From an uncultured Bacteroidia bacterium (GTDB taxonomy: Bacteria; Bacteroidota; Bacteroidia; Bacteroidales; CAJPTX01), in contig CAUUMS010000002.1 in the NCBI GenBank assembly GCA_963546395.1, forward strand, positions 12,585 through 76,584: a stretch of 64,000 nt of DNA, written 5' to 3'. The notes below the pieces were generated by a model, which saw only the letters and a list, made by a program, of their open reading frames with translations, did not search any database and was not told where the DNA came from. Made by a program: the position numbers and the translations under genes. Positions 40,508-63,514 of the stretch are shown here, one piece after another. Positions within the stretch are counted from its first letter, which is position 1; the number at the start of each line of letters is the position of its first letter.

Positions 40508-42084
40508 CACTTGTTCTCCCGGACAAACCGTCCCTTGATGTAACGGTATTGCCATTGGCTTATGATGAGTCGATTCTGTGCCATCCCCTGCTGTTGCATC
40601 GGGATGTCCTCCTCCAGCGTGTGTATAGAGCCCCCCGTGCGGTACGCTATCGTTATGTAGTCCTCATGCGGGGGTAGGGATGTCCTACCGGGTTGTGCCC
40701 CGCACAGCAGCACGTGCACTGGCATCTGCACCTCCCCCAGCAGGGCTATATCGCGCACAGGACTCGTGTTGTCGGCTATCAGCACCAGGCTCGAGGCCTC
40801 TGGGTAGCGAGCCTGTGCGGCCAGCAGGGCCTCCACGTCGTTCTCATCCTCACCGCCACTACATCCGTGCGAGATGCTTCGCAGCAGCGTGTCAACCGTC
40901 TGCTTGAAATTCGGTGGGCTGAAATGGATTCCCCCCGTGCGCCCTAGCACCTTGAGCGAATCGGGCTTGCCGTCCCCGTCGTTGAAGAAGGCACTCCCCA
41001 CGGTTCGTTGGCTATTGTTCGATAGGGTGAGCCACAGCAGGTATTGCTCGATGTGGGGATCCATGCTGCACGTCACATCCACCACGTAGGCGGCCTTGTT
41101 CCACCCATTCCGCAGGAGCGGGCGTAGCACCTCCATGTGGGTGCGTGTGGCGTACTTGGGATCCTCCTTCTGCGCTTCGTGCAGCGACTGGCGTAGCAGG
41201 TAGATTCCCGTCTCCACCTGCTTGGTAATCTTGGGGGTCGGCTTCAGGGGCCGCTGCGGAATGCAGTATGCAATGTTTGGCGATGCGGCTTTAGCCTTAC
41301 GGAAGTGGTGCCGCGCTATGCGCACGCTGTCCTGCCGTGTCTTCATGGCCACACCCTTACGGGCCATCGGCGTTTCGCCCCCCGCATCGGCCTTCGGTTT
41401 GGCGGCCCGTGGGGCCCGTTGCAAGCCCCACTCTAGCTTCAGCTCCGCCGTCTGTAGGGGAGGGCTTGTGGTGAAGGTGTGCGTATCAAAGTTCTCTAAC
41501 CCCCGCACGCTGAAGGTGTAACGATCGCCCAGAGGCACATTCAGCCTGGCTTTCCCCTCCTTATCCGTGGTGGCGCTGAACTGCTCCCCCTTCGAGTTGC
41601 GTGCCGTCAGCTGCTGGTTGACCCACGGCTTCCCCACGCTATCCAGGTAGGTGAACAGCACGAGTCCATTCCCCTCGCTGGCCGTGCGACCCGCCATGCG
41701 CTCGGGGGGAAGCTGTATCTCTACCGACTCGTCCCGGTTGCTCGTCCCCTTGGTGGTGAAAGTGGTGAACTTGCTGAACTTTTCCACGCTCACTGCGTAG
41801 TTAGCCCCCGGCAACAGCGTGACAAATCCTAGCCCGTACTGATTCGTGCTGCATTGCGACGCATCCTTCACGTCAACTCCCGTGAGCCGCACCCGCCCCT
41901 GGTAGGGTTTCCCCTGGGCATCCCGCACCTCTAGCCTCACCACGATGCGCCCGGGTTTACTCCCACGCTTGCCCTGGGTGGAGTGATGTAGCCCCTCACC
42001 GGCCATCAAAGGTCCCGTGCCCAGAAGCAGCAGGCCCACCGCTAGCAGGCACCGCAGGCTCACCCATCTTGCTACGCCTTCCAT
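40507..42084 (-). CDS. secreted protein with two CarboxypepD_reg-like Ig domains and a C-terminal vWA-like domain
   Basis: Signal-like N-terminus from MEGVARWVSLRCLLAVGLLLLG and a MIDAS-like VVDVTCSMD. It overlaps the upstream sensor gene by 13 bp. Confidence 0.6.
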   Translation of the reverse strand: MEGVARWVSLRCLLAVGLLLLGTGPLMAGEGLHHSTQGKRGSKPGRIVVRLEVRDAQGKPYQGRVRLTGVDVKDASQCSTNQYGLGFVTLLPGANYAVSVEKFSKFTTFTTKGTSNRDESVEIQLPPERMAGRTASEGNGLVLFTYLDSVGKPWVNQQLTARNSKGEQFSATTDKEGKARLNVPLGDRYTFSVRGLENFDTHTFTTSPPLQTAELKLEWGLQRAPRAAKPKADAGGETPMARKGVAMKTRQDSVRIARHHFRKAKAASPNIAYCIPQRPLKPTPKITKQVETGIYLLRQSLHEAQKEDPKYATRTHMEVLRPLLRNGWNKAAYVVDVTCSMDPHIEQYLLWLTLSNNSQRTVGSAFFNDGDGKPDSLKVLGRTGGIHFSPPNFKQTVDTLLRSISHGCSGGEDENDVEALLAAQARYPEASSLVLIADNTSPVRDIALLGEVQMPVHVLLCGAQPGRTSLPPHEDYITIAYRTGGSIHTLEEDIPMQQQGMAQNRLIISQWQYRYIKGRFVRENK

Positions 42085-44384
42085 TGTTCGTATGAAAGCT
42101 TGATGATCTTCAGCACCTCGTTGAGCTGATTCTTGATGGGGATGTAGAATTCGGTCAGGTGCACCGTTGTTCCGTCGATTGTCATCTCGCACTCCAGCCG
42201 CTGGCTCGTGCCGTGGCGCAGATTGTGCCAGAAGTCCTCATACTGCATCCGGCTCCAGCCCGGCACAGTGATGGTATCGGCAAAGTGGGAGCCCACCACC
42301 AACTCACGCCGTCGGCCGATGCGTGCTAGGTACCTATCGCTGGCATCGGTGATGAAGCCATCCAGGTTGTACTCCACGTAGTACATCATGCTGGCCAGCG
42401 TGCGGATCAGATTATCCGTCTCTGCGCTGCGCCGAGAGGCCTCCTCTTGGGTAGCGCGTAACGCCTCGAGGTTCTGGTGGAGCTCCTCGTCCCGATTGGC
42501 TAACGCCTCAGCCTGCTCGCGCGACTGTTGTAGCAGCTGCCGGGTGCGTACCCCCACTCGTACGCTGAAGAAGCTTGAGGCCACGGGCAACGAGAGGCTC
42601 CGCAGGAAATCCACCACATGCGGCTCAAACATGTTGAACGATGCAAGCTCGATAACGCCCAGGCTCTCCTCTTCATGCAGGAGGGGGAGGAAGACCAGTG
42701 CCCGCGGTTCCGCCTCGCCCACTCCGGCCAGGATGGTGGAGTAGTGGGGTGGTACATCGGTCACGAGCTGCACCTCGCGCTCCATGGCGCACGCCCCCAC
42801 AAGTCCCACCCCGTAGGGGATGCGATCCTCGAGGTACCGTTTCCGATCCCAGGCAAAGGCACTCTTCAGGTAGTACTCTCGCTCGCCCGTGCGCTGTGCC
42901 AGCTCATCGTCCAGCAGGTAGAGCCCCCCCTGTTGCGCGCCCACGAATTCGATCAGCCTGCGCAGAAGCTGATCGCAGAGCTCATCGAAGTTGTCTGGGT
43001 AGCTCCGTAGCAGCTCGCCAAAGGTGGCTAAGCCCTGACTCGCCCAGGTGCGTTGCGCATTCTCCCGCTCGCGGGCCGCTTGCAGTGCCTGCGCCTCACG
43101 GAGGCTGTTGCGCATCCCAATCAGCGATTGCCCCAGCGTGTCATCCTCGCTCAGCAGGGCGATGTCTTGCGTCAGGTCGCCGTGCCCAATGCGTTCCGCC
43201 AGCCTGTTCTTAGTGCCCAGCCCATCGATGAGCGCATTCAGCGCATGCGCCATGTCCTCAATCTCATTGCCCGTGGCGATGTGGAGCTTGAGATCCTCTG
43301 AGATCGATCCACGCCCCAGCGTTCGCAGCGTGGCCGTGACGGCTTCGATGGGCTTCGAGATGTGGTTCGACACGTTGACCAGAATCACTACCAGCACCAG
43401 CAGTGCCACCAGGCCCACTAGTAGCGCGATGCGTAAGCTCCGGTTGGCCGAGGCCTGAATGACCTCCACCGGCACCCGGATCCCAAGGGCCCAATACACG
43501 TTCGACTGGTACATCTTCACCGGCACGATGGCGATGTAGTGCTGCCGTCCATCCCTGTCCGAGGTGGTGAAGGTGTGGGTGCGCCCCGTCTTGATCGCCT
43601 CACGTAGCCCCTCGCGCGCCGTGGATTGCGGGAACAGAAACTCGATGGGCTTCATCAGCAGCGAGTCGCTCGGGTATGCCGCTATGGTTCCCTCATTCGA
43701 CACCAGGAACGCCGTGCTCCCCTCGTAGGGCTGAAGGCTGAACACCAGCTTTTGCAGCCAGTCCAGCGCAATGTCGCAGGCCACCAGCCCGGCAAACTGC
43801 CCATCCTTGCGCATGGGGGCCGCCACGGTGGTCATCAGCACCCGGTTCGCCAGATTCGTCGACGTGATGTCGAGGTAGGGCTCCCAGATCGAGGCGATAT
43901 TCCTTGCCTTGAACTCTGCGTACTGCCTCGTGTCGCCCGTCAGGCTCAGAATCATGTTCGAGGTGTCGATCCCCCCCTCCGCATTGCGGAGGAAGGCCCG
44001 TGAGACGCGCCCGTAGGGTTTGTTGTAATCCGGCTTGAAACAGGAGAACTCGTACGAGTCCCACAGGGCTATCAGGTCGGGATGCGTGGCGTACACGCGG
44101 CCCATCATGTCTAGATGCTCGCGCTGCCACTGCGCCAGGGGCTTCTCGGTGAAGCTTGAGAACGCATCGGCAAGCGTGGTGCTGGCCGACATGTACTGCT
44201 CGAAACGGCAGCTCACCTCGTAGGCTGCTCGTTCGGCGCTCAGCAGCACCGTCTCATACGTGTCACGGAGGATCACCTCCCGCGTGGAGCTCACAATGTA
44301 GCCCACCGAGGCCACGTAGATGAGCCCCGAGACGGAGAGAACCAGGAACAGAATCTTGTACTTAATGCGTAGCCGAATCGCCAT
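42072..44384 (-). CDS. membrane sensor TM-Cache-TM-HAMP-GAF-coiled coil-PAS with no recognisable output domain
   Basis: Two TM helices bracket a ~280-aa periplasmic region. A HAMP domain (SKPIEAVTATLRTL...IEDMAHALNALI), a GAF domain (GGLYLLDDE...LGVIELASF) and a terminal PAS domain follow. The protein ends right after the PAS. Confidence 0.75.
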   Translation of the reverse strand: MAIRLRIKYKILFLVLSVSGLIYVASVGYIVSSTREVILRDTYETVLLSAERAAYEVSCRFEQYMSASTTLADAFSSFTEKPLAQWQREHLDMMGRVYATHPDLIALWDSYEFSCFKPDYNKPYGRVSRAFLRNAEGGIDTSNMILSLTGDTRQYAEFKARNIASIWEPYLDITSTNLANRVLMTTVAAPMRKDGQFAGLVACDIALDWLQKLVFSLQPYEGSTAFLVSNEGTIAAYPSDSLLMKPIEFLFPQSTAREGLREAIKTGRTHTFTTSDRDGRQHYIAIVPVKMYQSNVYWALGIRVPVEVIQASANRSLRIALLVGLVALLVLVVILVNVSNHISKPIEAVTATLRTLGRGSISEDLKLHIATGNEIEDMAHALNALIDGLGTKNRLAERIGHGDLTQDIALLSEDDTLGQSLIGMRNSLREAQALQAARERENAQRTWASQGLATFGELLRSYPDNFDELCDQLLRRLIEFVGAQQGGLYLLDDELAQRTGEREYYLKSAFAWDRKRYLEDRIPYGVGLVGACAMEREVQLVTDVPPHYSTILAGVGEAEPRALVFLPLLHEEESLGVIELASFNMFEPHVVDFLRSLSLPVASSFFSVRVGVRTRQLLQQSREQAEALANRDEELHQNLEALRATQEEASRRSAETDNLIRTLASMMYYVEYNLDGFITDASDRYLARIGRRRELVVGSHFADTITVPGWSRMQYEDFWHNLRHGTSQRLECEMTIDGTTVHLTEFYIPIKNQLNEVLKIIKLSYEQWKA

Positions 44385-54019: not shown

Positions 54020-54685
54020 TCATGGAATCTGCTCTAGGTCTTCGGGTGATAGCACGCTGATAGAGGCTCCGTGCCGTATGATGTGCCCCTTGCGGACGAG
54101 GCTCGTGAGCGCACGGGATAGGACTTCCCGGCTGCATCCAATCAGCTGCGCCAGCTGTGTCTGCCCCAGGGGGAGTGCTAGCGTATCGCCGTGCGCAGAT
54201 TGCCTATGTAGACGGGCGAGTAGGAATGCCGTGCGTCCCTCGACGCTTTTACTCAGCATGGCCTGATGCCATCGCAGCACCGCTTGAGTCTCGCAGGCGC
54301 ATACCTCCGCTAGATGAAAGGCTAGGTCGGGGTTCTTACGGGCCGCATTCAGTAGCACGCTGCGAGGTATTGCCATGATGCGTGCGGGCATGAAGGCTTG
54401 TACCAGGTAAGTCGTGGTGCTATTGCAGAGGGAAGTGGATAGGTTGAGCCACGTCTGCCCGAGTGCCAGCTGTGGCACGGGTGCTTCTTGTGCTCCTATC
54501 GAGGGTTGAATGATTGCTCCGCCCTCCAACAGGTAAATGCAGGGGGCATTGGGTAGCAATGTGGCGTGAAAGCTCTGCTTTTTTGACAGTGTGCTGATGT
54601 TGGCCTGCTCGGCGAGTCGGATGAGCTGCAACGCTGGTAGGAAGCGGAGTTGGGGCATCTGCTGGGCAAACTCAACGGCGGTCAT
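54020..54685 (-). CDS. Crp/Fnr-family transcriptional regulator
   Basis: N-terminal cNMP-like barrel and a C-terminal HTH, TQLAQLIGCSREVLSRAL. The HTH matches the E. coli CRP recognition helix GCSRETVGR, including the R-E-x-x-x-R base contacts. The start is taken at MTAVEF (ATG at 54685). Confidence 0.85.
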   Translation of the reverse strand: MTAVEFAQQMPQLRFLPALQLIRLAEQANISTLSKKQSFHATLLPNAPCIYLLEGGAIIQPSIGAQEAPVPQLALGQTWLNLSTSLCNSTTTYLVQAFMPARIMAIPRSVLLNAARKNPDLAFHLAEVCACETQAVLRWHQAMLSKSVEGRTAFLLARLHRQSAHGDTLALPLGQTQLAQLIGCSREVLSRALTSLVRKGHIIRHGASISVLSPEDLEQIP

Positions 54686-54799: not shown

Positions 54800-56647
54800 A
54801 TGGAGCGTGCGATGGCAAAGAAGCAGGCGAGCCTGGTGGGAGGCTTGGTGGCGCAGATGGCGGAGAGAGTCATATCGATCGACGACATCGTGTACCTCTT
54901 CGATCAGATTGACAATCAGATTTTGGAGCTGCACCGCTGCTCGTCGGAGGATTTCCTGGGGCTCAATGCCCGATTTAAGGGTTTCTACAAGGATGCGAAA
55001 GGCATTTCAGCCTGCGCCGGCGATCTATTCTTGCTATTTGCCGAGGGGGCTAATCGTCGTCTGATTGCCGACCTCACGGATTTTCACGCGGGGATAGGTC
55101 AGAGCCAGGCGCATCTGGCCGAGCTGCTAGAGTCCAGCCTTTCCACCATGGCACAGATGCGGGCGAGGCTTTCGGCACTATACCTCCCGCTGCGTAACAT
55201 GGCGCAAGCTGTGGGGACACTCAGCCTGCTGCTGACTAATCTCACCCTGGGGCATAAGCCCTTCTTACGCATGGCGCAGCACACGACGGAGAGCTTCAAC
55301 GCACTGCGGGGCGAGGTAGATCACTTTGCTGAGCGTATCAACGGGCTAGGACGCACGGTGCGCCACTACGGAGGCCAGCTGGAGCAGGCCCAGCAGCAGG
55401 TGCAACAGGTGCGCGGAAAGGCCCGGAGGAGCCTCGATGCGGTTCTAAACTCAGTGCATTACGGGCTGCTCCTGTTCGCCGAAAAGCATGCGGAGACTAA
55501 CGCCCGGGTACCGGACATTTCGCAGAAGACGGAAAGCACCTCCAAGAGCATTGCTGGCATCATCACGAACCTCCAGTACCAGGATATCATCCGTCAGAAG
55601 ATGGAGCATATCCAAGCGGCCCACCAGGAGCTGATGGGGCGCCTGCGCACGGAGCGCGAGCATGCTGAAGAGGGCAGCGCAGGGTGGATAGACATGCTCA
55701 TTCAGATTCGGGACATATCGGCGTTGCAATCGGCACAGCTGGTGGCGACGAATCGCGAGTACCAGCATGCCATCGAGACACTGTCGCAGAACTTTCAGAG
55801 CATTGCGCACGACATGGAGACGATAGCGGAGCTCAGTCGTGACACGCTGCGTATGGAGGGTGAGGGCAGTGGCACCACGGCCATTACCGGCTTGCTGGAG
55901 CGTCTCAGGGGGTCTCAGGGAGAGCTGAAGACGCTGACGCAGGTAGTGCCAGAGTTCCATGAATTGCAGGCGGAACTTGTGACTGAAGGGCAGACATTGT
56001 GCGCTGAGATCGAGGTGTGCATGGGCGACTTTCGGCGTATGATAGGCCAGATTGAGCCACTGCTGACGATACCTGAACGTGCGGCTCCCAATGCGAGCTT
56101 CACCATGATAACGCAGCAGATGGGTGCCGTGGTAGATGATCTCGTGGCCAATGCGGATAAGGTGACTACCAATGTGGCGGGCCTGGGAAAGGGTTGCGCT
56201 GCGCTGATGATGTGCGAGAGCGACCTGAAGGAGTCCCTACAGCTATGGAAGAGCTTTGAGGAAGGGGTCGATCGCATGCATGGCATCGGGACGGGTCTGG
56301 CGCAGACGGCTGGGAGGAGCGCAGAGCTGCTTGCGCAGATAGAGGCCATGAGCAAGAAGGTGTCGCATGACACTCGGATTGCGATGTCGGAGATCCGCTA
56401 TTACGATCTGTTCGAGGGTGTGATTGGGGAGATTATTGATGCGCTCAATGCCATCAGCGCACGGATTCGTGAGGAGGTGCGTGGCGAGGGAGCCGCAGGC
56501 AACCTGGAGAAGGTGCGTAGGCACTACACGATGGCGAGCGAGCATAAGATCCATGACTCGTTTCAGGGTGAAGGCGATGTGGATCTATTCGGCGACGAGG
56601 TGATAGACGAACCGGAGGAGGACGACGATGGGCTAGAGCTCTTCTAG
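54800..56647 (+). CDS. 615-aa soluble all-helical coiled-coil protein; non-canonical receptor/scaffold candidate with a CheZ-like YQDIIRQ signature
   Basis: No TM segment or signal peptide. It has NLQYQDIIRQKMEHIQ (D262/Q266), a degenerate second copy IRYYDLFEG, a Q-rich stretch EQAQQQVQQ and the acidic tail EPEEDDDGLELF. It is the first gene of the che-like operon. Confidence 0.7.
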   Translation: MERAMAKKQASLVGGLVAQMAERVISIDDIVYLFDQIDNQILELHRCSSEDFLGLNARFKGFYKDAKGISACAGDLFLLFAEGANRRLIADLTDFHAGIGQSQAHLAELLESSLSTMAQMRARLSALYLPLRNMAQAVGTLSLLLTNLTLGHKPFLRMAQHTTESFNALRGEVDHFAERINGLGRTVRHYGGQLEQAQQQVQQVRGKARRSLDAVLNSVHYGLLLFAEKHAETNARVPDISQKTESTSKSIAGIITNLQYQDIIRQKMEHIQAAHQELMGRLRTEREHAEEGSAGWIDMLIQIRDISALQSAQLVATNREYQHAIETLSQNFQSIAHDMETIAELSRDTLRMEGEGSGTTAITGLLERLRGSQGELKTLTQVVPEFHELQAELVTEGQTLCAEIEVCMGDFRRMIGQIEPLLTIPERAAPNASFTMITQQMGAVVDDLVANADKVTTNVAGLGKGCAALMMCESDLKESLQLWKSFEEGVDRMHGIGTGLAQTAGRSAELLAQIEAMSKKVSHDTRIAMSEIRYYDLFEGVIGEIIDALNAISARIREEVRGEGAAGNLEKVRRHYTMASEHKIHDSFQGEGDVDLFGDEVIDEPEEDDDGLELF

Positions 56648-56677: not shown

Positions 56678-57019
56678 TTGGCAATGAAGACAGTAAAGCT
56701 GAAGGCGAGCGGCGGAAAAGCCAAGGGAGACGGCATCCTACAGGTGCAGGGCAGCCTGACGCTCGATTGTGTGGAGGAACTCCTGAAATTCTTCCGTGAA
56801 GGGGTGGCGAAGTATCAGAACATCCGGGTGGAGGCCGCAGGCGTGACGGGGATCGATCTCGGCTTTTTGCAGCTCCTGCATGCCCTAGACGAGTGCCAGC
56901 ACGCCAGGGGAAAGACATTGGACGTGTCGCTTGCGTTGGAGCCTGAGATGGCCCAACTGCTACGCCATGCGGGGTTTGCGCATTGGACAGGCCAGTTACA
57001 TGACGGGAATAACAGCTAA
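56678..57019 (+). CDS. STAS-domain protein (anti-sigma-antagonist fold)
   Basis: LQVQGSLTLDCVEEL...VEAAGVTGIDLGFLQLL pattern, 113 aa. Confidence 0.75.
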   Translation: MAMKTVKLKASGGKAKGDGILQVQGSLTLDCVEELLKFFREGVAKYQNIRVEAAGVTGIDLGFLQLLHALDECQHARGKTLDVSLALEPEMAQLLRHAGFAHWTGQLHDGNNS

Positions 57020-57024
57020 GTAGT

Positions 57025-57390
57025 ATGCCTAAGAGGATCTTGATTGTGGATGACTCTGAGAGTATCCGCGAGGTGGTGAGCTTTACACTTGAGAACGAGG
57101 GATTCGATGTGGTAGTGGCCAATGATGGGACGGATGCTCTCACAAAGCTCGATGGCACGCCCGTGGATCTCATCATCACGGATCTCCACATGCCCGAGAT
57201 GGATGGGATCACCCTCATCAAGCACGTGAGGGGTATGGAGCTCTACCAGCGGATCCCCATCCTGTTTCTGACGACTGAGTCCCAGACGAGCAAGAAGATG
57301 GAGGCCAAGGAGGCCGGGGCTACCGGGTGGATCATTAAGCCCTTTGTGCCAGCCAAGCTAATTGCTGCCCTGAATAAAGTGCTACGCTGA
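57025..57390 (+). CDS. cheY: CheY-like single-domain response regulator
   Basis: DD pair (ILIVDDSE), phospho-Asp in IITDLHMPEMDG, T in LTTES and K in IKPF. Confidence 0.9.
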   Translation: MPKRILIVDDSESIREVVSFTLENEGFDVVVANDGTDALTKLDGTPVDLIITDLHMPEMDGITLIKHVRGMELYQRIPILFLTTESQTSKKMEAKEAGATGWIIKPFVPAKLIAALNKVLR

Positions 57391-59495
57391 TGGACGTGAA
57401 AATGGACAGCTTTAGGCAGAAGTTCGTTGAGGAGGCCGCAGATCTCATCGAAAGCCTAGAGAAGACGGTGCTCGAGCTCGAGGAGAGCCCGAGCGATGCG
57501 GATATCGTGCAGCGCGTCTTCCGCATTATGCACACGCTCAAGGGGAACAGCAGCATGTTCGGCTTTGAGCAGATCGACCGCTTCACGCACCAGATGGAGA
57601 CCATCTACGACCTAGTGCGCAGTGGCGACCGTGAAGTCAGCAAGGCGATCCTGGATGTCACCCTGCGCTCTGTGGATCACCTCAAGCGTCTGCTGGAGGA
57701 GGCCGGCGTGGAGAGCGTCCAGCTCATGCGTGAGCAAGATGAGCTGGTGGCCCTGATGGATGGCATCATAGAGGGCCGAGAGGATGGGGAACAGGGTGCT
57801 GACGCTGTGCCAGCTGAAGAGCCTCAGGAGAAGGCCGAGGCTAGTGCGGATGGGTTTGAAACCTTCTACATTCGCTATGCACCAGTCTCCGACATTTTCA
57901 ATAATGGGACGAATCCGCTCTACCAGGTGGACGAGGTGTATGCGTTGGGGCCATGCCGGGTGAAGGTGAACATGGAGCGGGTACCCTCTCTGGAAACCAT
58001 GGAGCCGTCCTACTGCTACACATCGTGGGAGATCGTGCTGGCTACGCAGCAGGGGCGCAATGCCATCGACGATGTGTTCATCTTCGTAGAGGGTGAATCA
58101 GATCTGGAAATCCAGCGTCTCGAGTCGGGCAATCTGCTACAGAATGAGACCTTTGTGAGCGACCTTGATGCACTCTGGGATGGCCGGCCTGGCACAATCG
58201 GGGTGGAAGAGCTGCGCCATATTGTGCCTGAGGCGGTAGTGGTGCCCGAGCGCAAGAAGGAGGGCCTTAATAGGGGAGAGGTGAAAGACGTGGCCATATC
58301 GTCGATCCGTGTGGCCTCGGAGAAGCTCGACGAGCTGATGAATCTCGTCTCCGAGCTCGTGACCACGCAGGCGCGCCTCACCCTGTTCGCCGAGAAGAGC
58401 AATCTGCCCGGGCTCGTGAGCATCTCGGAGAATGTGCAGAAGCTCAGCCGACAGCTCCGCGACATTGCCTTCAGCATTGTCCTGATCCCGATAGACAATC
58501 TGATTACCCGCTTCCACCGTCTGGTGCGCGACCTCTCGAAGGGCCTCAACAAGGATGTCCGCTTCGTGACGGAGGGCTCCGACACAGAGCTTGACAAGAC
58601 GATCATTGAGGGGCTGGCCGATCCGCTGCTGCATATCCTGCGCAATAGCCTGGATCACGGCATAGAGGATGCGGAGACCCGCGAGCGAGCCGGGAAACCA
58701 CGCCAGGGTACGATTTTGCTCAAGGCCTTCTACTCCGGCACTAACGTCATGATACAGGTTTCCGACGACGGGGCTGGTATCGATTCCAAGGCGGTACACG
58801 CTAAGGCGGTGGAGAAGGGAATTATCGCAGCCGATCGGAAGCTCTCCAAGCGTGAGTGCCTCGATATGATATTCACGCCTGGTTTTAGCACCTCGAAGGT
58901 CGTCACCGACGTTTCCGGGCGCGGCGTGGGTATGGACGTGGTGAAGCGTAAGATCGCCGAGCTACGTGGTGAGGTGGAGATAGACTCCGAGAAGGGTGTG
59001 GGCACCACTATCACCATCAGGCTGCCTCTCACGCTATCCATCATCGACGGGTTACTCGTTCGGGTGGCCGATACCTCCTACGTGATCCCGCTCTCTGCTG
59101 TGGATAAGATCTACGCCGTTGAGCACCGCAAGGTGGTCAACCAGTTCAATGACGTGGTCGAGCTGGACGGCGTGCAGATCCCCTTCTTCAATCTGCGCGA
59201 GGAGTTCGAGCTCGCAGAGTTCACGGGGGAGATGGAGCAGGTGGTCGTAGTACACTTCGAGGAGAAGAAGGTAGGCTTCGTGGTGGACATGGTGGTGGGC
59301 GAGTACCAGGCTGTGCTGAAGCCGCTCGGCACGCATTACAAGAACCAGGACATGATATCGGGTGCCACCATCCTGGGCGATGGCACGGTGGCCCTAGTGA
59401 TGGATACGAACCGCAGCATCAAGTACTTCACCAAGCACGAGGAGTTTACACTTGGTGCCGAGAGCGGGACGAACGACGATAACAAGCAAAAGTAA
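57390..59495 (+). CDS. cheA: chemotaxis histidine kinase CheA
   Basis: Hpt motif RIMHTLKGNS (His codon at 57531-33), HATPase boxes (DHGIE, DDGAGID, GRGVGMDVV) and a C-terminal CheW-like domain. The ATG overlaps the cheY stop (TGATG). Confidence 0.93.
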   Translation: MDVKMDSFRQKFVEEAADLIESLEKTVLELEESPSDADIVQRVFRIMHTLKGNSSMFGFEQIDRFTHQMETIYDLVRSGDREVSKAILDVTLRSVDHLKRLLEEAGVESVQLMREQDELVALMDGIIEGREDGEQGADAVPAEEPQEKAEASADGFETFYIRYAPVSDIFNNGTNPLYQVDEVYALGPCRVKVNMERVPSLETMEPSYCYTSWEIVLATQQGRNAIDDVFIFVEGESDLEIQRLESGNLLQNETFVSDLDALWDGRPGTIGVEELRHIVPEAVVVPERKKEGLNRGEVKDVAISSIRVASEKLDELMNLVSELVTTQARLTLFAEKSNLPGLVSISENVQKLSRQLRDIAFSIVLIPIDNLITRFHRLVRDLSKGLNKDVRFVTEGSDTELDKTIIEGLADPLLHILRNSLDHGIEDAETRERAGKPRQGTILLKAFYSGTNVMIQVSDDGAGIDSKAVHAKAVEKGIIAADRKLSKRECLDMIFTPGFSTSKVVTDVSGRGVGMDVVKRKIAELRGEVEIDSEKGVGTTITIRLPLTLSIIDGLLVRVADTSYVIPLSAVDKIYAVEHRKVVNQFNDVVELDGVQIPFFNLREEFELAEFTGEMEQVVVVHFEEKKVGFVVDMVVGEYQAVLKPLGTHYKNQDMISGATILGDGTVALVMDTNRSIKYFTKHEEFTLGAESGTNDDNKQK

Positions 59496-59507
59496 CAAGG
59501 CAAGGCC

Positions 59508-60041
59508 ATGAATGAGCATAAAGGCGAGGGGATGTCAAAGATCAATTCCTATCTCACATTCAAGCTCGGCGAGGAGAAATTTGCAGCCCATGTGAGCAAG
59601 GTGCTAAACATCCTCGAGATGACTCGCATCACGGAGGTACCCAAGTCGCCCGACTACATGACAGGGGTTATCAACCTTCGGGGCTCGGTGCTCCCTGTGG
59701 TAGACACGCGCATCAAGTTCGGCATGACACCCACCGAGTTCACCCCCAACACGTGTATCGTGGTGATGGACATTGACCTCGAGGGGGAATCAGTTTACGT
59801 GGGGGCCCTGGTGGACGCTGTGCAGGCTGTCATCGAGATCGAGGATCAGGATATTCTGCCGCCTCCCTCTCTGGGCACCAAGTACCGCTCGGAGTTCATC
59901 GTGGGGGTGGCCAATGTCAATGACAGCTTCGTCATGATACTGAACATGGACGAGGTCTTTAGCACCGAGGAGATCGTGAGCATCCACGAGCACACGGTGG
60001 AGGCCCCAGAGGCGCAGGAGTCGGAGAACTCGCAGGAGTAA
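59508..60041 (+). CDS. cheW: coupling protein CheW
   Basis: YLTFKLGEEKFA...GVINLRGSVLPVVD pattern. Confidence 0.9.
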   Translation: MNEHKGEGMSKINSYLTFKLGEEKFAAHVSKVLNILEMTRITEVPKSPDYMTGVINLRGSVLPVVDTRIKFGMTPTEFTPNTCIVVMDIDLEGESVYVGALVDAVQAVIEIEDQDILPPPSLGTKYRSEFIVGVANVNDSFVMILNMDEVFSTEEIVSIHEHTVEAPEAQESENSQE

Positions 60042-60104: not shown

Positions 60105-60974
60105 ATGGCAGACACAGAGCTTCCGTACGCCGAGCTCCACAATAGCTACCGGGTTGAGCTTGGCGATAGGGACTTCGAGCGCTTGAGTCGGTTCATCTAT
60201 GCCGCCGCTGGGATCAAGATGCCGCCGGCAAAGAGAATCATGCTCCAGAGCCGCCTGCAAAAGCGCCTGCGTGAGCTCAACATCGCCGACTTCACCACCT
60301 ACGCCGACTATGTGCTCAGCGAGCGCGGCCAGCAGGAGGAAATCATCCACATGCTCGATGTGGTCAGCACCAATAAGACCGACTTCTTCCGTGAGCCGGT
60401 GCACTTCGACTTCCTGCGCGATGTCGTGCTGCCCGAGTTCTTTCACGGACAGGATCGGGGTCGCATCAACGTGTGGAGTGCCGGATGCTCTAGCGGCGAA
60501 GAGCCATACACCATCGGCATGGTGATCTCCGATTTCATAGCGGGCCACCCCGGTTGGGATTTTAGCGTCCTGGGCACCGACCTGAGCACTAAGATCCTGG
60601 CTGCTGCCGTCAATGCGGTGTACAAGGAGGAGCGGGTTGAGGGGATCCCATTGGCCACCAAGCGTAAGTATTTCCTGCGGAGCAAGGATCGCGAAAAGGC
60701 CACCGTGCGCATCATCCCCGAGCTGCGACGGCATATGCACTTCCAACGGCTGAACTTCATGGATCCCAGTTACACCATTCACGAGATGTTCGACGTGGTG
60801 TTCTGCCGCAACGTGCTGATCTACTTCGATCGGGCCACGCAGGAGGCCGTCATCCGCAAGCTGTGCACCAAGCTCAAGCCGAATGGCTACTTCTTCCTGG
60901 GCCACTCGGAGTCCATTATGAACATGAATCTACCCCTGGCGCCCATCAAGCCAACCATTTTCCGCAAGAAGTAA
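60105..60974 (+). CDS. cheR: protein-glutamate O-methyltransferase CheR
   Basis: TNKTDFFRE, WSAGCSSGEEPYT and FCRNVLIYF. Confidence 0.92.
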   Translation: MADTELPYAELHNSYRVELGDRDFERLSRFIYAAAGIKMPPAKRIMLQSRLQKRLRELNIADFTTYADYVLSERGQQEEIIHMLDVVSTNKTDFFREPVHFDFLRDVVLPEFFHGQDRGRINVWSAGCSSGEEPYTIGMVISDFIAGHPGWDFSVLGTDLSTKILAAAVNAVYKEERVEGIPLATKRKYFLRSKDREKATVRIIPELRRHMHFQRLNFMDPSYTIHEMFDVVFCRNVLIYFDRATQEAVIRKLCTKLKPNGYFFLGHSESIMNMNLPLAPIKPTIFRKK

Positions 60975-60982
60975 ACGGACAC

Positions 60983-61936
60983 ATGAAACGCGAGGAGTCG
61001 AACATTGCACCGTCCACGGCCGAGTGCCCCCGGCACGCCGCCCTCTCCGATGCTGAGCTGCTCGAAGAGCTACGTCGCCGCATCATGCGCGCCAACCAGA
61101 CGGTGGAGGAGCTCACGAGCCTGAATGAGGAGCTGCGCATTGTCAACAAGAAGCTCGAGGAATCCGAGGAGCTCAAGAGCCACTTCATCAGCAATATCAC
61201 CAACGAGATCATCAATCCCTTCACCTCTATACTGGGCCTGTCCAGGGCGATACTGAGTGTCGATAAGGAGTCGTGGAAGAAGGTAATCTCCATGGTGGCC
61301 CTGATACACGCCGAGGCCTTCAGCCTCGACTTTCAGTTCCGTAACATCTTCTTCGCGGCCAAGCTCGAGGCCGGTGAGGCTCGCCCGGAGGTGTTGAACT
61401 CGAACATTCGTGCCCTCGTAGAGGGGGTCGTGGAGAGCTTTCGCTTCGAGTTGCGCAAGAAACGCCTCAACCTCTCGGTGGTCGACAGCTTGCCTGGCAG
61501 GCCACAGGACGCCGAGCCCTTCATGTTCAAGAGCGATCCAGCCTACATCAAGCTGATACTGGCCAATCTGCTCAGCAATGCGGTCAACTTCAGCTATGAG
61601 GGAGGCGACATCGAGATCGCCTGTGCCTTGCGTGATAACAGGCTCGTGCTCAGGGTGCGCGACTACGGCACAGGCATTGCCCCTGAGCAGCTCAGCTCCA
61701 TCTTCGATCGCTTTAAGCGGGGTGACAACGGCATCAACTCCGTCAACCGTGGCCATGGCCTCGGCCTCTCTGTGAGCAAGGCCGTCATCGATTTGCTCGA
61801 GGGCCAAATCACCGTGGAGAGCGAGCCGGGAGTAGGATCCGTCTTCGAGATCCAGATCCCCGAGGCCACTACCCCCGTGGAGGGATTTGCCTCCGAGGCC
61901 AATGAGATATTCTTCGATGATGAAGAGATATTCTGA
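60983..61936 (+). CDS. soluble HisKA/HATPase_c kinase-like protein with a non-canonical H-box (Asn at the phospho-acceptor position)
   Basis: Coiled-coil N-terminus with no sensor domain. The H-box FISNITNEIINPFTSILG compares with the consensus FlANvSHELRTPLtsIlG. The N box (LLSNAVNFS), G1 (RDYGTGI), F (FDRF) and G2 (GHGLGLS) are intact. The start is taken at MKREES. Confidence 0.8.
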   Translation: MKREESNIAPSTAECPRHAALSDAELLEELRRRIMRANQTVEELTSLNEELRIVNKKLEESEELKSHFISNITNEIINPFTSILGLSRAILSVDKESWKKVISMVALIHAEAFSLDFQFRNIFFAAKLEAGEARPEVLNSNIRALVEGVVESFRFELRKKRLNLSVVDSLPGRPQDAEPFMFKSDPAYIKLILANLLSNAVNFSYEGGDIEIACALRDNRLVLRVRDYGTGIAPEQLSSIFDRFKRGDNGINSVNRGHGLGLSVSKAVIDLLEGQITVESEPGVGSVFEIQIPEATTPVEGFASEANEIFFDDEEIF

Positions 61937-62409
61937 TGGTGGCCATGGCGACACGAGAGACGCACTTCCTCTACCCTGCTGCGCTCTTTGCGAGCCCAAC
62001 ACCCGTCACGGTATCCACCATACTGGGCTCATGCGTGGCCGTATGCCTATTCGATAAAGAGCGAGGCATCGGGGGTATTAATCACTACATGCTCCCATTC
62101 TGGAACGGGCAGGGGCTAGCTAGCCCCAAGTACGGGAACATCGCCATCGAGAAGCTCCTCGAGAAGATGCTCTCGCTCGGTTGCCGCAAGGAGAACCTCG
62201 TAGCCAAGGTCTTCGGTGGGGGCGAGGTCATCGAGACGCACTCCCAGTTCCATATCGGGGCGCGCAACATTGAGCTGGCCACCACCACGCTCCGTGAGCT
62301 TGGCATCCCCCTGGTGGCGCGCAGCGTGGGGGGCCCCAACGGGCGTAAGCTCGAGTTCGACACCGAAACAGGAGCCGTGAGGCAGCGGCTGATCCAGAAA
62401 ACTATTTAG
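61936..62409 (+). CDS. cheD: chemoreceptor glutamine deamidase CheD
   Basis: TILGSCVAVCLFD and INHYMLP motifs. The ATG overlaps the preceding stop (TGATG). Confidence 0.88.
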   Translation: MVAMATRETHFLYPAALFASPTPVTVSTILGSCVAVCLFDKERGIGGINHYMLPFWNGQGLASPKYGNIAIEKLLEKMLSLGCRKENLVAKVFGGGEVIETHSQFHIGARNIELATTTLRELGIPLVARSVGGPNGRKLEFDTETGAVRQRLIQKTI

Positions 62410-62428
62410 CAAGCGAGAGCGATCCTAG

Positions 62429-63514
<1,086 letters not shown>

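Follow-up and report, generated by a model that had tools for sequence, protein, structure and literature searches.

The first gene of a chemosensory operon

The 64,000-nucleotide stretch of contig CAUUMS010000002.1 analyzed here (the window), which derives from an uncultured Bacteroidia bacterium, contains a chemosensory operon with the gene order X615, STAS_2, CheY, CheA, CheW, CheR, a histidine-kinase-like protein, CheD, and CheB (Table 1), where X615 denotes the 615-residue product of the first gene and is the subject of this study. The Pfam scan of the operon proteins found no CheZ, CheC, CheX, or FliY encoded in it. Hardly any work has been done on the chemosensory systems of the non-flagellated Bacteroidales that live in gut, rumen, and mouth: the literature that we found goes no further than a list of the che genes in one oral relative (PMC6275135), and no published account of the operon or of the X615 protein in Bacteroidales was found in our literature searches. 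The original prediction, made from the nucleotide sequence of the window, regarded X615 as a possible cryptic receptor or scaffold carrying a CheZ-like DxxxQ signature and a CheZ-like acidic C-terminal peptide.

The association of X615 with the operon was assessed by sampling operons in metagenomes through a different gene, that of the kinase-like protein, to avoid circularity. Among the 38 kinase-sampled loci with enough upstream sequence, 35 hold CheY-CheA-CheW, and X615 is the first gene in all 35. The other three have a split form, in which methyl-accepting chemotaxis protein (MCP)-CheR-kinase-like-CheD-CheB lies among housekeeping genes without X615, and about 11 further examples of this form were found when shorter contigs were included. 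Because X615 heads every one of the 35 operons and is absent from the split block, it travels with the excitation block and not with the receptor and the modifying enzymes. X615 is the fixed first gene of the excitation block X615-STAS-CheY-CheA-CheW, and in more than 90 loci it is strictly linked to Che genes. The split-form loci L130, L132-L135, L140, L143, L147, L154, L155, and L161 have no X615, STAS, CheY, CheA, or CheW gene nearby.

X615 belongs to an uncharacterized, Bacteroidales-restricted family of ~600-residue, internally duplicated, all-helical proteins. An exhaustive profile search for relatives gave 307 clusters, defined at 50% identity, with E-values below 1e-30 and 1142 below 1e-10, and the family has 226 matches among species-representative genomes. 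The 150 best clusters are mostly ~560-640 residues long, with a minority of 350-520 residues that seem to be partial, and no added domains were seen among them. The family ranges over Rikenellaceae, Tenuifilaceae, Perlabentimonas, Williamwhitmania, and many rumen and gut Bacteroidales, and a cultured representative is Perlabentimonas gracilis WP_166362735.1. Among the nearest relatives, which belong to uncultured oral Bacteroidia, is “Candidatus Bacteroides periocalifornicus” (49% identity). The closest one has 611 residues and the first ~25 residues of X615 are not conserved, and M5 might be the true start of the protein. The relatives are named in databases only “hypothetical” or “coiled-coil domain-containing protein,” and a Pfam number attached to two of them, PF28017, could not be identified.

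A paralog of X615 occurs in a clade of rumen Bacteroidales (L050:3890-6241, L057, L069, L075, L077, and other rumen loci). It is 26% identical to X615, has both the motif and the tail described below intact, and sits behind the genes of a small membrane protein and a GT2 glycosyltransferase. The genes of a CheW-like protein and an ApbE-like lipoprotein adjoin it or lie 2-8 kb off, and MCPs are sometimes nearby; neither cheA nor cheY was found near the paralogs in the fetched flanks.

Table 1. Positions of X615, its conserved elements, and the neighboring genes in the window
Feature	Position	Strand	Basis or remark
X615 coding sequence (615 aa)	54800..56647	+	ORF list; start possibly M5 at 54812
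N-terminal conserved block, aa 34-73 (F..ID..I..LH.CSS.DFLGLNA.FK.FYK.AK.IS..A)	54899..55018	+	invariant or near-invariant columns F52, L44, S48, D51, K60
Repeat 1, aa 166-287, long helix with the DxxxQ block at its end	55295..55660	+	hhalign of N half vs C half; AF2 helix 163-286
Invariant motif block, aa 250-275, SIAGIITNLQYQDIIRQKMEHIQAAH; D262 = 55583-55585, Q266 = 55595-55597	55547..55624	+	alignment of 80 relatives
Hairpin partner arm, aa 300-328, L.QIRDI(S/A).LQ.AQL..(T/A)N(K/R)EYQ.AIE	55697..55783	+	alignment of 80 relatives and covariation
Repeat 2, aa 438-554, degenerate copy IRYYDLFEGVIGEI (aa 532-545) at its end	56111..56461	+	hhalign; no Gln at D+4
Conserved YTM.SEH.IH block, aa 576-585	56525..56554	+	Y576, T577, H585 (nearly) invariant
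Disordered acidic tether, aa 586-615; internal GDVDLF copy; terminal DDDGLELF (aa 608-615, nt 56621-56644)	56555..56644	+	pLDDT, alignment
STAS_2 protein	56678..57019	+	Pfam PF13466, E 6e-11; follows X615 in most loci
CheY, single receiver domain	57025..57390	+	Pfam Response_reg, E 6e-29
CheA (57390-59495) and CheW (59508-60041)	57390..60041	+	Pfam domains; synteny
Adaptation block: CheR (60105-60974), His-less kinase-like protein (60983-61936), CheD (61936-62409), CheB (62432-63514)	60105..63514	+	Pfam
Divergent Crp/Fnr-type regulator, upstream of the operon	54020..54685	-	Pfam HTH_Crp_2

Fold, internal duplication, and conserved blocks of X615

The strings on which the original prediction was built are present in X615 where it placed them: LQYQDIIRQKMEHIQ at residues 258-272, with the codons of D262 and Q266 at 55583-85 and 55595-97, respectively; a degenerate second copy at residues 532-545; the stretch LEQAQQQVQQ at residues 194-203; and the C-terminus EPEEDDDGLELF. 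The protein had also been expected to be soluble and helical, which agrees with our analysis. No transmembrane segment is indicated in X615, the highest 19-residue Kyte-Doolittle mean being 1.13, and the AlphaFold2 (AF2) model, built with 27 relatives (mean pLDDT 77.5), is all helical besides the loops and the tail, with long helices at residues 27-81, 84-151, 163-286, 294-350, 361-422, 432-531, and 534-559. The tail, residues 589-615, is predicted to be disordered with pLDDT below 50.

When the N half of the family profile was compared with the C half by hhalign, residues 166-287 were aligned with residues 438-554 at a probability of 91% and an E-value of 9.5e-7, which supports the internal duplication that had been proposed from the degenerate copy. 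The alignment puts LQYQDIIRQKMEHI over IRYYDLFEGVIGEI, i.e., LQYQDII over IRYYDLF. X615 is thus internally duplicated, and the second copy has no Gln at D+4; position 540 is K, N, R, or G and never Q in the 80 relatives introduced below.

Covariation was examined by a mean-field analysis of 324 sequences (Meff 168). The top pair was 268-317, and the top antiparallel band, residues 251-278 against 308-335, stood ~5.7 SD above the band distribution. The DxxxQ helix therefore lies in an antiparallel hairpin in which the AF2 helices 163-286 and 294-350 agree with the covariation band, so the two invariant blocks would face each other ~20-35 residues from the loop. The helical hairpin that the original prediction called for is accordingly seen in the model. 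The loop of this conserved hairpin varies in length among the relatives, with both insertions and deletions.

Conservation was counted in 80 species-level relatives with 20-50% overall identity to X615, of which 78 were used for the C-terminus. Residues L258, Q259, Y260, D262, I263, I264, Q266, and K267 are identical in 80/80, giving the consensus LQY[Q/H]DII[R/K]QK, where position 261 is occupied by His in 48 relatives and by Gln in the other 32, as in the X615 of the window. Equally fixed are Q310, A312, L314, N318, Y321, Q322, and A324 on the partner arm, and Y534, Y535, F538, and I545 in the region of the second repeat, and little or no variation occurs at Y576, T577, and H585. All 78 C-termini end in [LVI]-E-[LF]-F, with E613 and F615 kept throughout. 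Nonconservation of D262/Q266 and of the terminal peptide among orthologs, which had been named beforehand as a result that would speak against the proposal, was thus not observed. In addition, when 1286 background proteins from these loci were scanned, the extended pattern [FY][QH]D[LIVM]xxQ turned up in just one further protein family. Because they are fixed across divergent relatives and the extended pattern is rare in the background, the D262/Q266 motif and the terminal tail are far from chance. The Gln-rich stretch at residues 194-203, by comparison, shows no conservation among the relatives and is peculiar to the X615 of the window. A zinc or other metal site composed of H45, C47, H270, and H275 was considered and dropped, as distant members do not conserve H45, C47, and H275.

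Pfam and NCBIfam yielded only sub-threshold coiled-coil matches for X615; phmmer and hmmsearch against PDB sequences found only coiled-coil and designed-bundle matches and a marginal MCP match in a variable region; and in Foldseek of the AF2 model against PDB, generic helical bundles (AhlB, TTYH, SMC) were all that came up, none with E <= 1e-3. These weak matches of the coiled-coil type, together with the “coiled-coil” source name mentioned above, would suit a generic structural coiled coil that has no specific signaling role and in which the DxxxQ motif and the tail are chance look-alikes. We consider this highly improbable, given the strict linkage to Che genes, the long sequence-invariant blocks, which structural coiled coils do not show, and a type of tail that is common only to other Che-linked proteins.

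Resemblance to CheZ and other response-regulator phosphatases

In CheZ, D143 pairs with the active-site Lys of the receiver and Q147 positions the hydrolytic water, and the motif lies on a long helical hairpin that dimerizes into a four-helix bundle. The strings of Escherichia coli CheZ and the D143/Q147 numbering were confirmed against an annotated cheZ record. The X615 family has D-x3-Q on a helix after [F/Y]-Q, the arrangement typical of CheZ, with the qualification that position 261 is either Q or H. The extended motif A-x-x-[F/Y]-Q-D-x3-Q is reported to be the hallmark of CheZ across Proteobacteria, the aromatic residue being Tyr in epsilon-proteobacteria (PMC7750401), and the residues flanking D-x3-Q in X615 agree with it. 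CheZ proteins, including such remote orthologs as Helicobacter pylori HP0170 and Azorhizobium caulinodans CheZ, share with X615 the [F/Y]-Q-D-x3-Q sequence on a long hairpin helix. In both, the motif is the best-conserved element and the remainder is divergent, a flexible linker leads to a short acidic-hydrophobic peptide with Phe as its last residue, and the gene lies beside cheY and cheA. The two differ in that X615 is a duplicated multi-helix protein, that its tail reads D-x-[LVI]-E-[LF]-F and that of CheZ DDLLxSLGF, and that X615 is found in Bacteroidales while CheZ has been reported only from Proteobacteria (PMC7750401).

Based on these likenesses, we tentatively favor the idea that X615 serves both as a docking protein and as an auxiliary phosphatase of response regulators, similar in function to CheZ though not its homolog, an idea that is possible rather than probable. 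The hairpin arm would carry the invariant Y-[Q/H]-D-I-I-[R/K]-Q as the active site, where Asp262 would pair with the active-site Lys of the receiver and Gln266 would position the hydrolytic water, as D143/Q147 of CheZ and the H-DxxxQ motif of HisKA_3 proteins do. The substrate would be CheY-P, or possibly CheB-P, and the acidic tether of 20-42 residues ending in [LVI]-E-[LF]-F-COOH would hold X615 on a Che partner. Our analysis shows the conservation throughout the family, the synteny, the hairpin, the duplication, and the lack of homology to MCPs and CheZ; the catalysis, the substrate, and the partner of the tail are inferred. A phosphatase-like active site is favored because the motif lies mid-helix, the opposite arm is equally invariant, and the loop is variable in length. 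The hairpin geometry of the model suggests a likeness to CheZ, where the active site is in the middle of the bundle, and not to MCPs, where the tip itself is invariant; the placement of the motif thus resembles that of an active site rather than a receptor tip. The occurrence of X615 in all 35 sampled operons with CheY-CheA-CheW, its absence from the split block, and the lack of CheZ, CheC, CheX, and FliY in the operon also speak for this role.

Other phosphatases were also compared. Huynh, Noriega, and Stewart reportedly described, in 2010, the phosphatase role of the H-DxxxQ motif in HisKA_3 kinases. The motif is also cited in PMC3510030. The Y-H-D-I-I-R-Q sequence found in 48/80 members of the X615 family corresponds to H-D-x3-Q on a hairpin helix, as in the DHp domain of HisKA_3 (NarX-type) kinases, where D-x3-Q serves the dephosphorylation of the response regulator. 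However, the His is not conserved in the X615 family, being replaced by Gln in the remaining 32, the window protein included, and neither a HisKA_3 Pfam match nor a HATPase domain was found. CheC, CheX, and FliY are auxiliary CheY-P phosphatases with an acid/amide pair on a helix and often accompany CheD. They differ from X615 in their alpha/beta fold and in the motif D/S-x3-E-x2-N-x22-P, and the Pfam scans gave no similarity to them.

Several observations weigh against a CheZ-type phosphatase. CheZ (PF04344) has no Pfam match in X615 or 27 relatives, and hhalign of a 49-sequence X615 family profile against five CheZ sequences gave a probability of 0.1%. With an HMM of the 26-residue CheZ active site, X615 did not score above background proteins of the same loci, and the CheZ resemblance is therefore only ~7 residues long. 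X615, with 615 residues, is three times larger than CheZ (~214-240 residues). The entire 26-residue block around the motif is invariant, beyond D and Q, which would fit a binding interface equally well. The rumen paralogs keep the motif and the tail yet sit away from cheY and cheA. Finally, the tail is like the pentapeptides of the MCPs of this system (phi-E-x-F) and the CheR has a loop as long as that of pentapeptide-dependent CheRs, so that X615 may dock on CheR or CheB instead of CheY, a point taken up below. The likeness to CheZ is thus one of motif and layout only, not of detectable homology: of the CheZ-like signature and tail in the original prediction, the motif, its layout, and its conservation held, while similarity to CheZ by Pfam, hhalign, or HMM was lacking.

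If the invariant block is an interface and DxxxQ is not catalytic, X615 might act as an output target or relay, to which CheY-P or the STAS protein binds and from which the signal is passed to a non-flagellar effector of gliding, secretion, or the envelope. The Bacteroidales concerned are not known to be flagellated (PMC6275135) and the operon has no recognizable output protein, X615 is always followed by the STAS_2 protein, and a wholly invariant 26-residue block is what an interface would be expected to have. The persistence of the rumen paralogs apart from cheA/cheY, beside the envelope-related genes of the GT2 glycosyltransferase and ApbE, would also agree with such a role. Nevertheless, no domain or neighbor ties X615 to motility or secretion machinery, the exact match to the D-x3-Q phosphatase motif would be left unexplained, and we regard such a role as improbable.

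Should the phosphatase assignment of X615 be true, the system would have its missing signal-termination step in a fixed component that bears a phosphatase-type motif but no annotation, and CheZ-like chemistry would be extended beyond Proteobacteria. X615, the shared E-x-F tails described in the next section, and the His-less kinase point to a differently wired pathway, which is testable in cultured P. gracilis.

Receptors, C-terminal tails, and neighbors of the operon

In several lineages, genes of canonical MCPs stand within the che operon, between those of CheW and CheR, or immediately ahead of it, and most operon-linked MCPs with a readable C-terminus end in x[YF]E[KHNR]F pentapeptides. B. 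subtilis CheR and P. aeruginosa CheR1 are pentapeptide-independent. These two enzymes have a 2-3-residue deletion in the beta-subdomain loop relative to the CheR of the window, which aligns gap-free across this loop to the pentapeptide-binding CheR of Salmonella. Given the operon-linked MCPs with pentapeptides and the loop length of CheR, the adaptation enzymes therefore have ordinary substrates in the system. The MCP tails seen in operon-linked Bacteroidales proteins include GYEKF, EFEKF, EYEHF, and AFEKY (L024, L033, L036, L067, L072, L150, and L165).

X615 itself shows little of a receptor. Like MCPs with NWETF-type tethers, it is a long helical protein encoded in a che operon and has a disordered linker ending in phi-E-x-F-COOH; unlike them, it has no MCPsignal domain, conserved tip, or methylation consensus, and position -4 of its tail is aliphatic, not aromatic. 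No MCPsignal domain was matched above the Pfam cut-off, the best family member reaching 20.6 bits against a cut-off of 34.6, and hhalign of the X615 family against ten Bacteroidales MCP signaling domains gave less than 1%. The methylation consensus [ASTG][ASTG]xx[EQ][EQ]xx[ASTG][ASTG] has no site in X615, and any site was found in just 14/324 relatives, at unconserved positions, while MCP fragments (285 residues) from the same loci have 1-5 sites each. These results do not bear out the idea of a cryptic receptor, nor that of the Gln-rich stretch as a CheD/CheR substrate region, since this unconserved stretch contains no consensus site. As judged from these sequence comparisons, X615 is not the methyl-accepting receptor of the system. 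The segments DFLGLNA and IRDIA.LQ.AQL, which by eye look like MCP tips, were unsupported by hhalign and are treated as chance.

The tail of X615 is on a tether of 20-42 residues with variable sequence across 289 relatives, and many family members have a second internal tail copy (GDVDLF). Among 2112 proteins of all fetched loci, E-x-F C-termini are confined to four Che-linked families: X615, the kinase-like protein (...FFD..EE[TIV]F), MCPs, and a TM-GAF-PAS sensor (...IEVELF). These shared tails point to a system-wide docking signal. According to the definition reportedly given by Ortega and Krell in 2020, the pentapeptide reads x-[FWYH]-x-x-[FWYH]. The MCPs in related loci conform to it (GYEKF, EFEKF, EYEHF), and the X615 tails deviate, position -4 being L/V/I in 77/78 and F in one, with F at position -1. 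The tail might bind CheY or the pentapeptide site of CheR or CheB; because E-x-F tails are also carried by the His-less kinase, the MCPs, and the GAF-PAS sensor, the choice lies between CheR/CheB and CheY. The mutual information between tail variants and the columns of CheY, CheR, CheB, CheW, CheA, STAS, the kinase, and CheD reflected phylogeny above all, and no protein stood out.

A scaffold has to be considered in this context. X615 could be a non-canonical module for array scaffolding or kinase control, an elongated coiled coil that binds CheW and CheA and recruits CheR and CheB via its pentapeptide-like tail, and it might, by extension, couple the output-less GAF-PAS or dCache-HAMP-GAF-PAS sensors to CheA as a split receptor. 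The position of X615 at the head of the operon, next to CheY, CheA, and CheW in every sampled case, the CheW-like gene next to or near the rumen paralogs, the confinement of E-x-F-COOH tails to the four families, and the CheR loop, which is as long as that of pentapeptide-dependent CheRs, would all be understandable on this basis. Its internal duplication is loosely like that of double-signaling-domain receptors, and some members have weak matches to MCPsignal or MCP structures (best E 4e-4 and 5e-5); these matches, however, fall in variable coiled-coil regions, beside matches to designed helical bundles. The hhalign result against MCP signaling domains, a conserved hairpin with indels in its loop and no conserved tip, the absence of methylation sites, the aliphatic residue at position -4, which contrasts with the aromatic one of local MCPs, and the co-occurrence of canonical MCPs in the same operons all argue against it, and we consider this role of X615 rather unlikely.

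Returning to the phosphatase that we tentatively favor, a broader evolutionary proposal can be formulated, which is doubtful at present: Bacteroidales would have evolved a CheZ-type D-x3-Q phosphatase independently of Proteobacteria, on an unrelated, duplicated helical scaffold, in a system where four unrelated E-x-F-COOH families, i.e., MCPs, the His-less kinase-like protein, the GAF-PAS sensor, and X615, dock on a common Che partner. The logic of the tether would then reach beyond receptors.

The kinase-like protein of the adaptation block has the H-box FISNITNEIINP, in which Asn takes the place of the phospho-accepting His, and this is conserved in at least 34 orthologs. In this protein (60983-61936, +), the ATPase domain is intact and the E-x-x-N of the HisKA phosphatase motif is retained, and the conserved acidic tail reads ...NE[TI]FFD..EE[TIV]F. 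Within the adaptation block, the protein may serve as a dedicated phosphatase or be a pseudo-kinase. The GAF-PAS sensor is a ~760-residue membrane protein with GAF and several PAS domains and no output domain, and it ends in TAFIQNIEVELF (L130:12563-14845). It is also encoded just downstream of cheB in L034, L042, L045, L145, L150, and L151, with a hybrid histidine kinase next to it.

The STAS_2 protein behind X615 does not have the DSSG phospho-serine of anti-sigma antagonists and reads IDLGFLQLL, and classical partner-switching phosphorylation of it is therefore unlikely. The CheY of the operon is unusually conserved, with 72-92% identity across loci where X615 is 25-50% identical, and its counterpart of the E. 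coli switch residue Tyr106 is a Trp (W102). In some Rikenellaceae-type loci, a 422-residue protein with an N-terminal signal-like sequence is encoded between cheW and cheR (L009:8537-9805 and L017:15180-16448), the slot occupied by an MCP in other lineages; at a guess, made from its sequence alone and with no domain search run, it might be an outer-membrane porin.

The Crp/Fnr-type regulator on the opposite strand upstream of the operon is kept in ~12 related loci. Farther upstream, 10 kb from the che operon, the window encodes a 770-residue protein (42072-44384, -) with dCache, HAMP, and GAF domains, a coiled coil, and a weak PAS match; its N-terminus is receptor-like, and no recognizable output domain or MCP signaling domain was found in it. 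The 209-kb metagenome contig ERZ1033933 NODE_4 (L086) carries the operon genes at 99-100% protein identity and with equal gene spacing. Its source is probably the same organism or one nearly identical to it, and the genomic context that it provides is far longer than that of the window.

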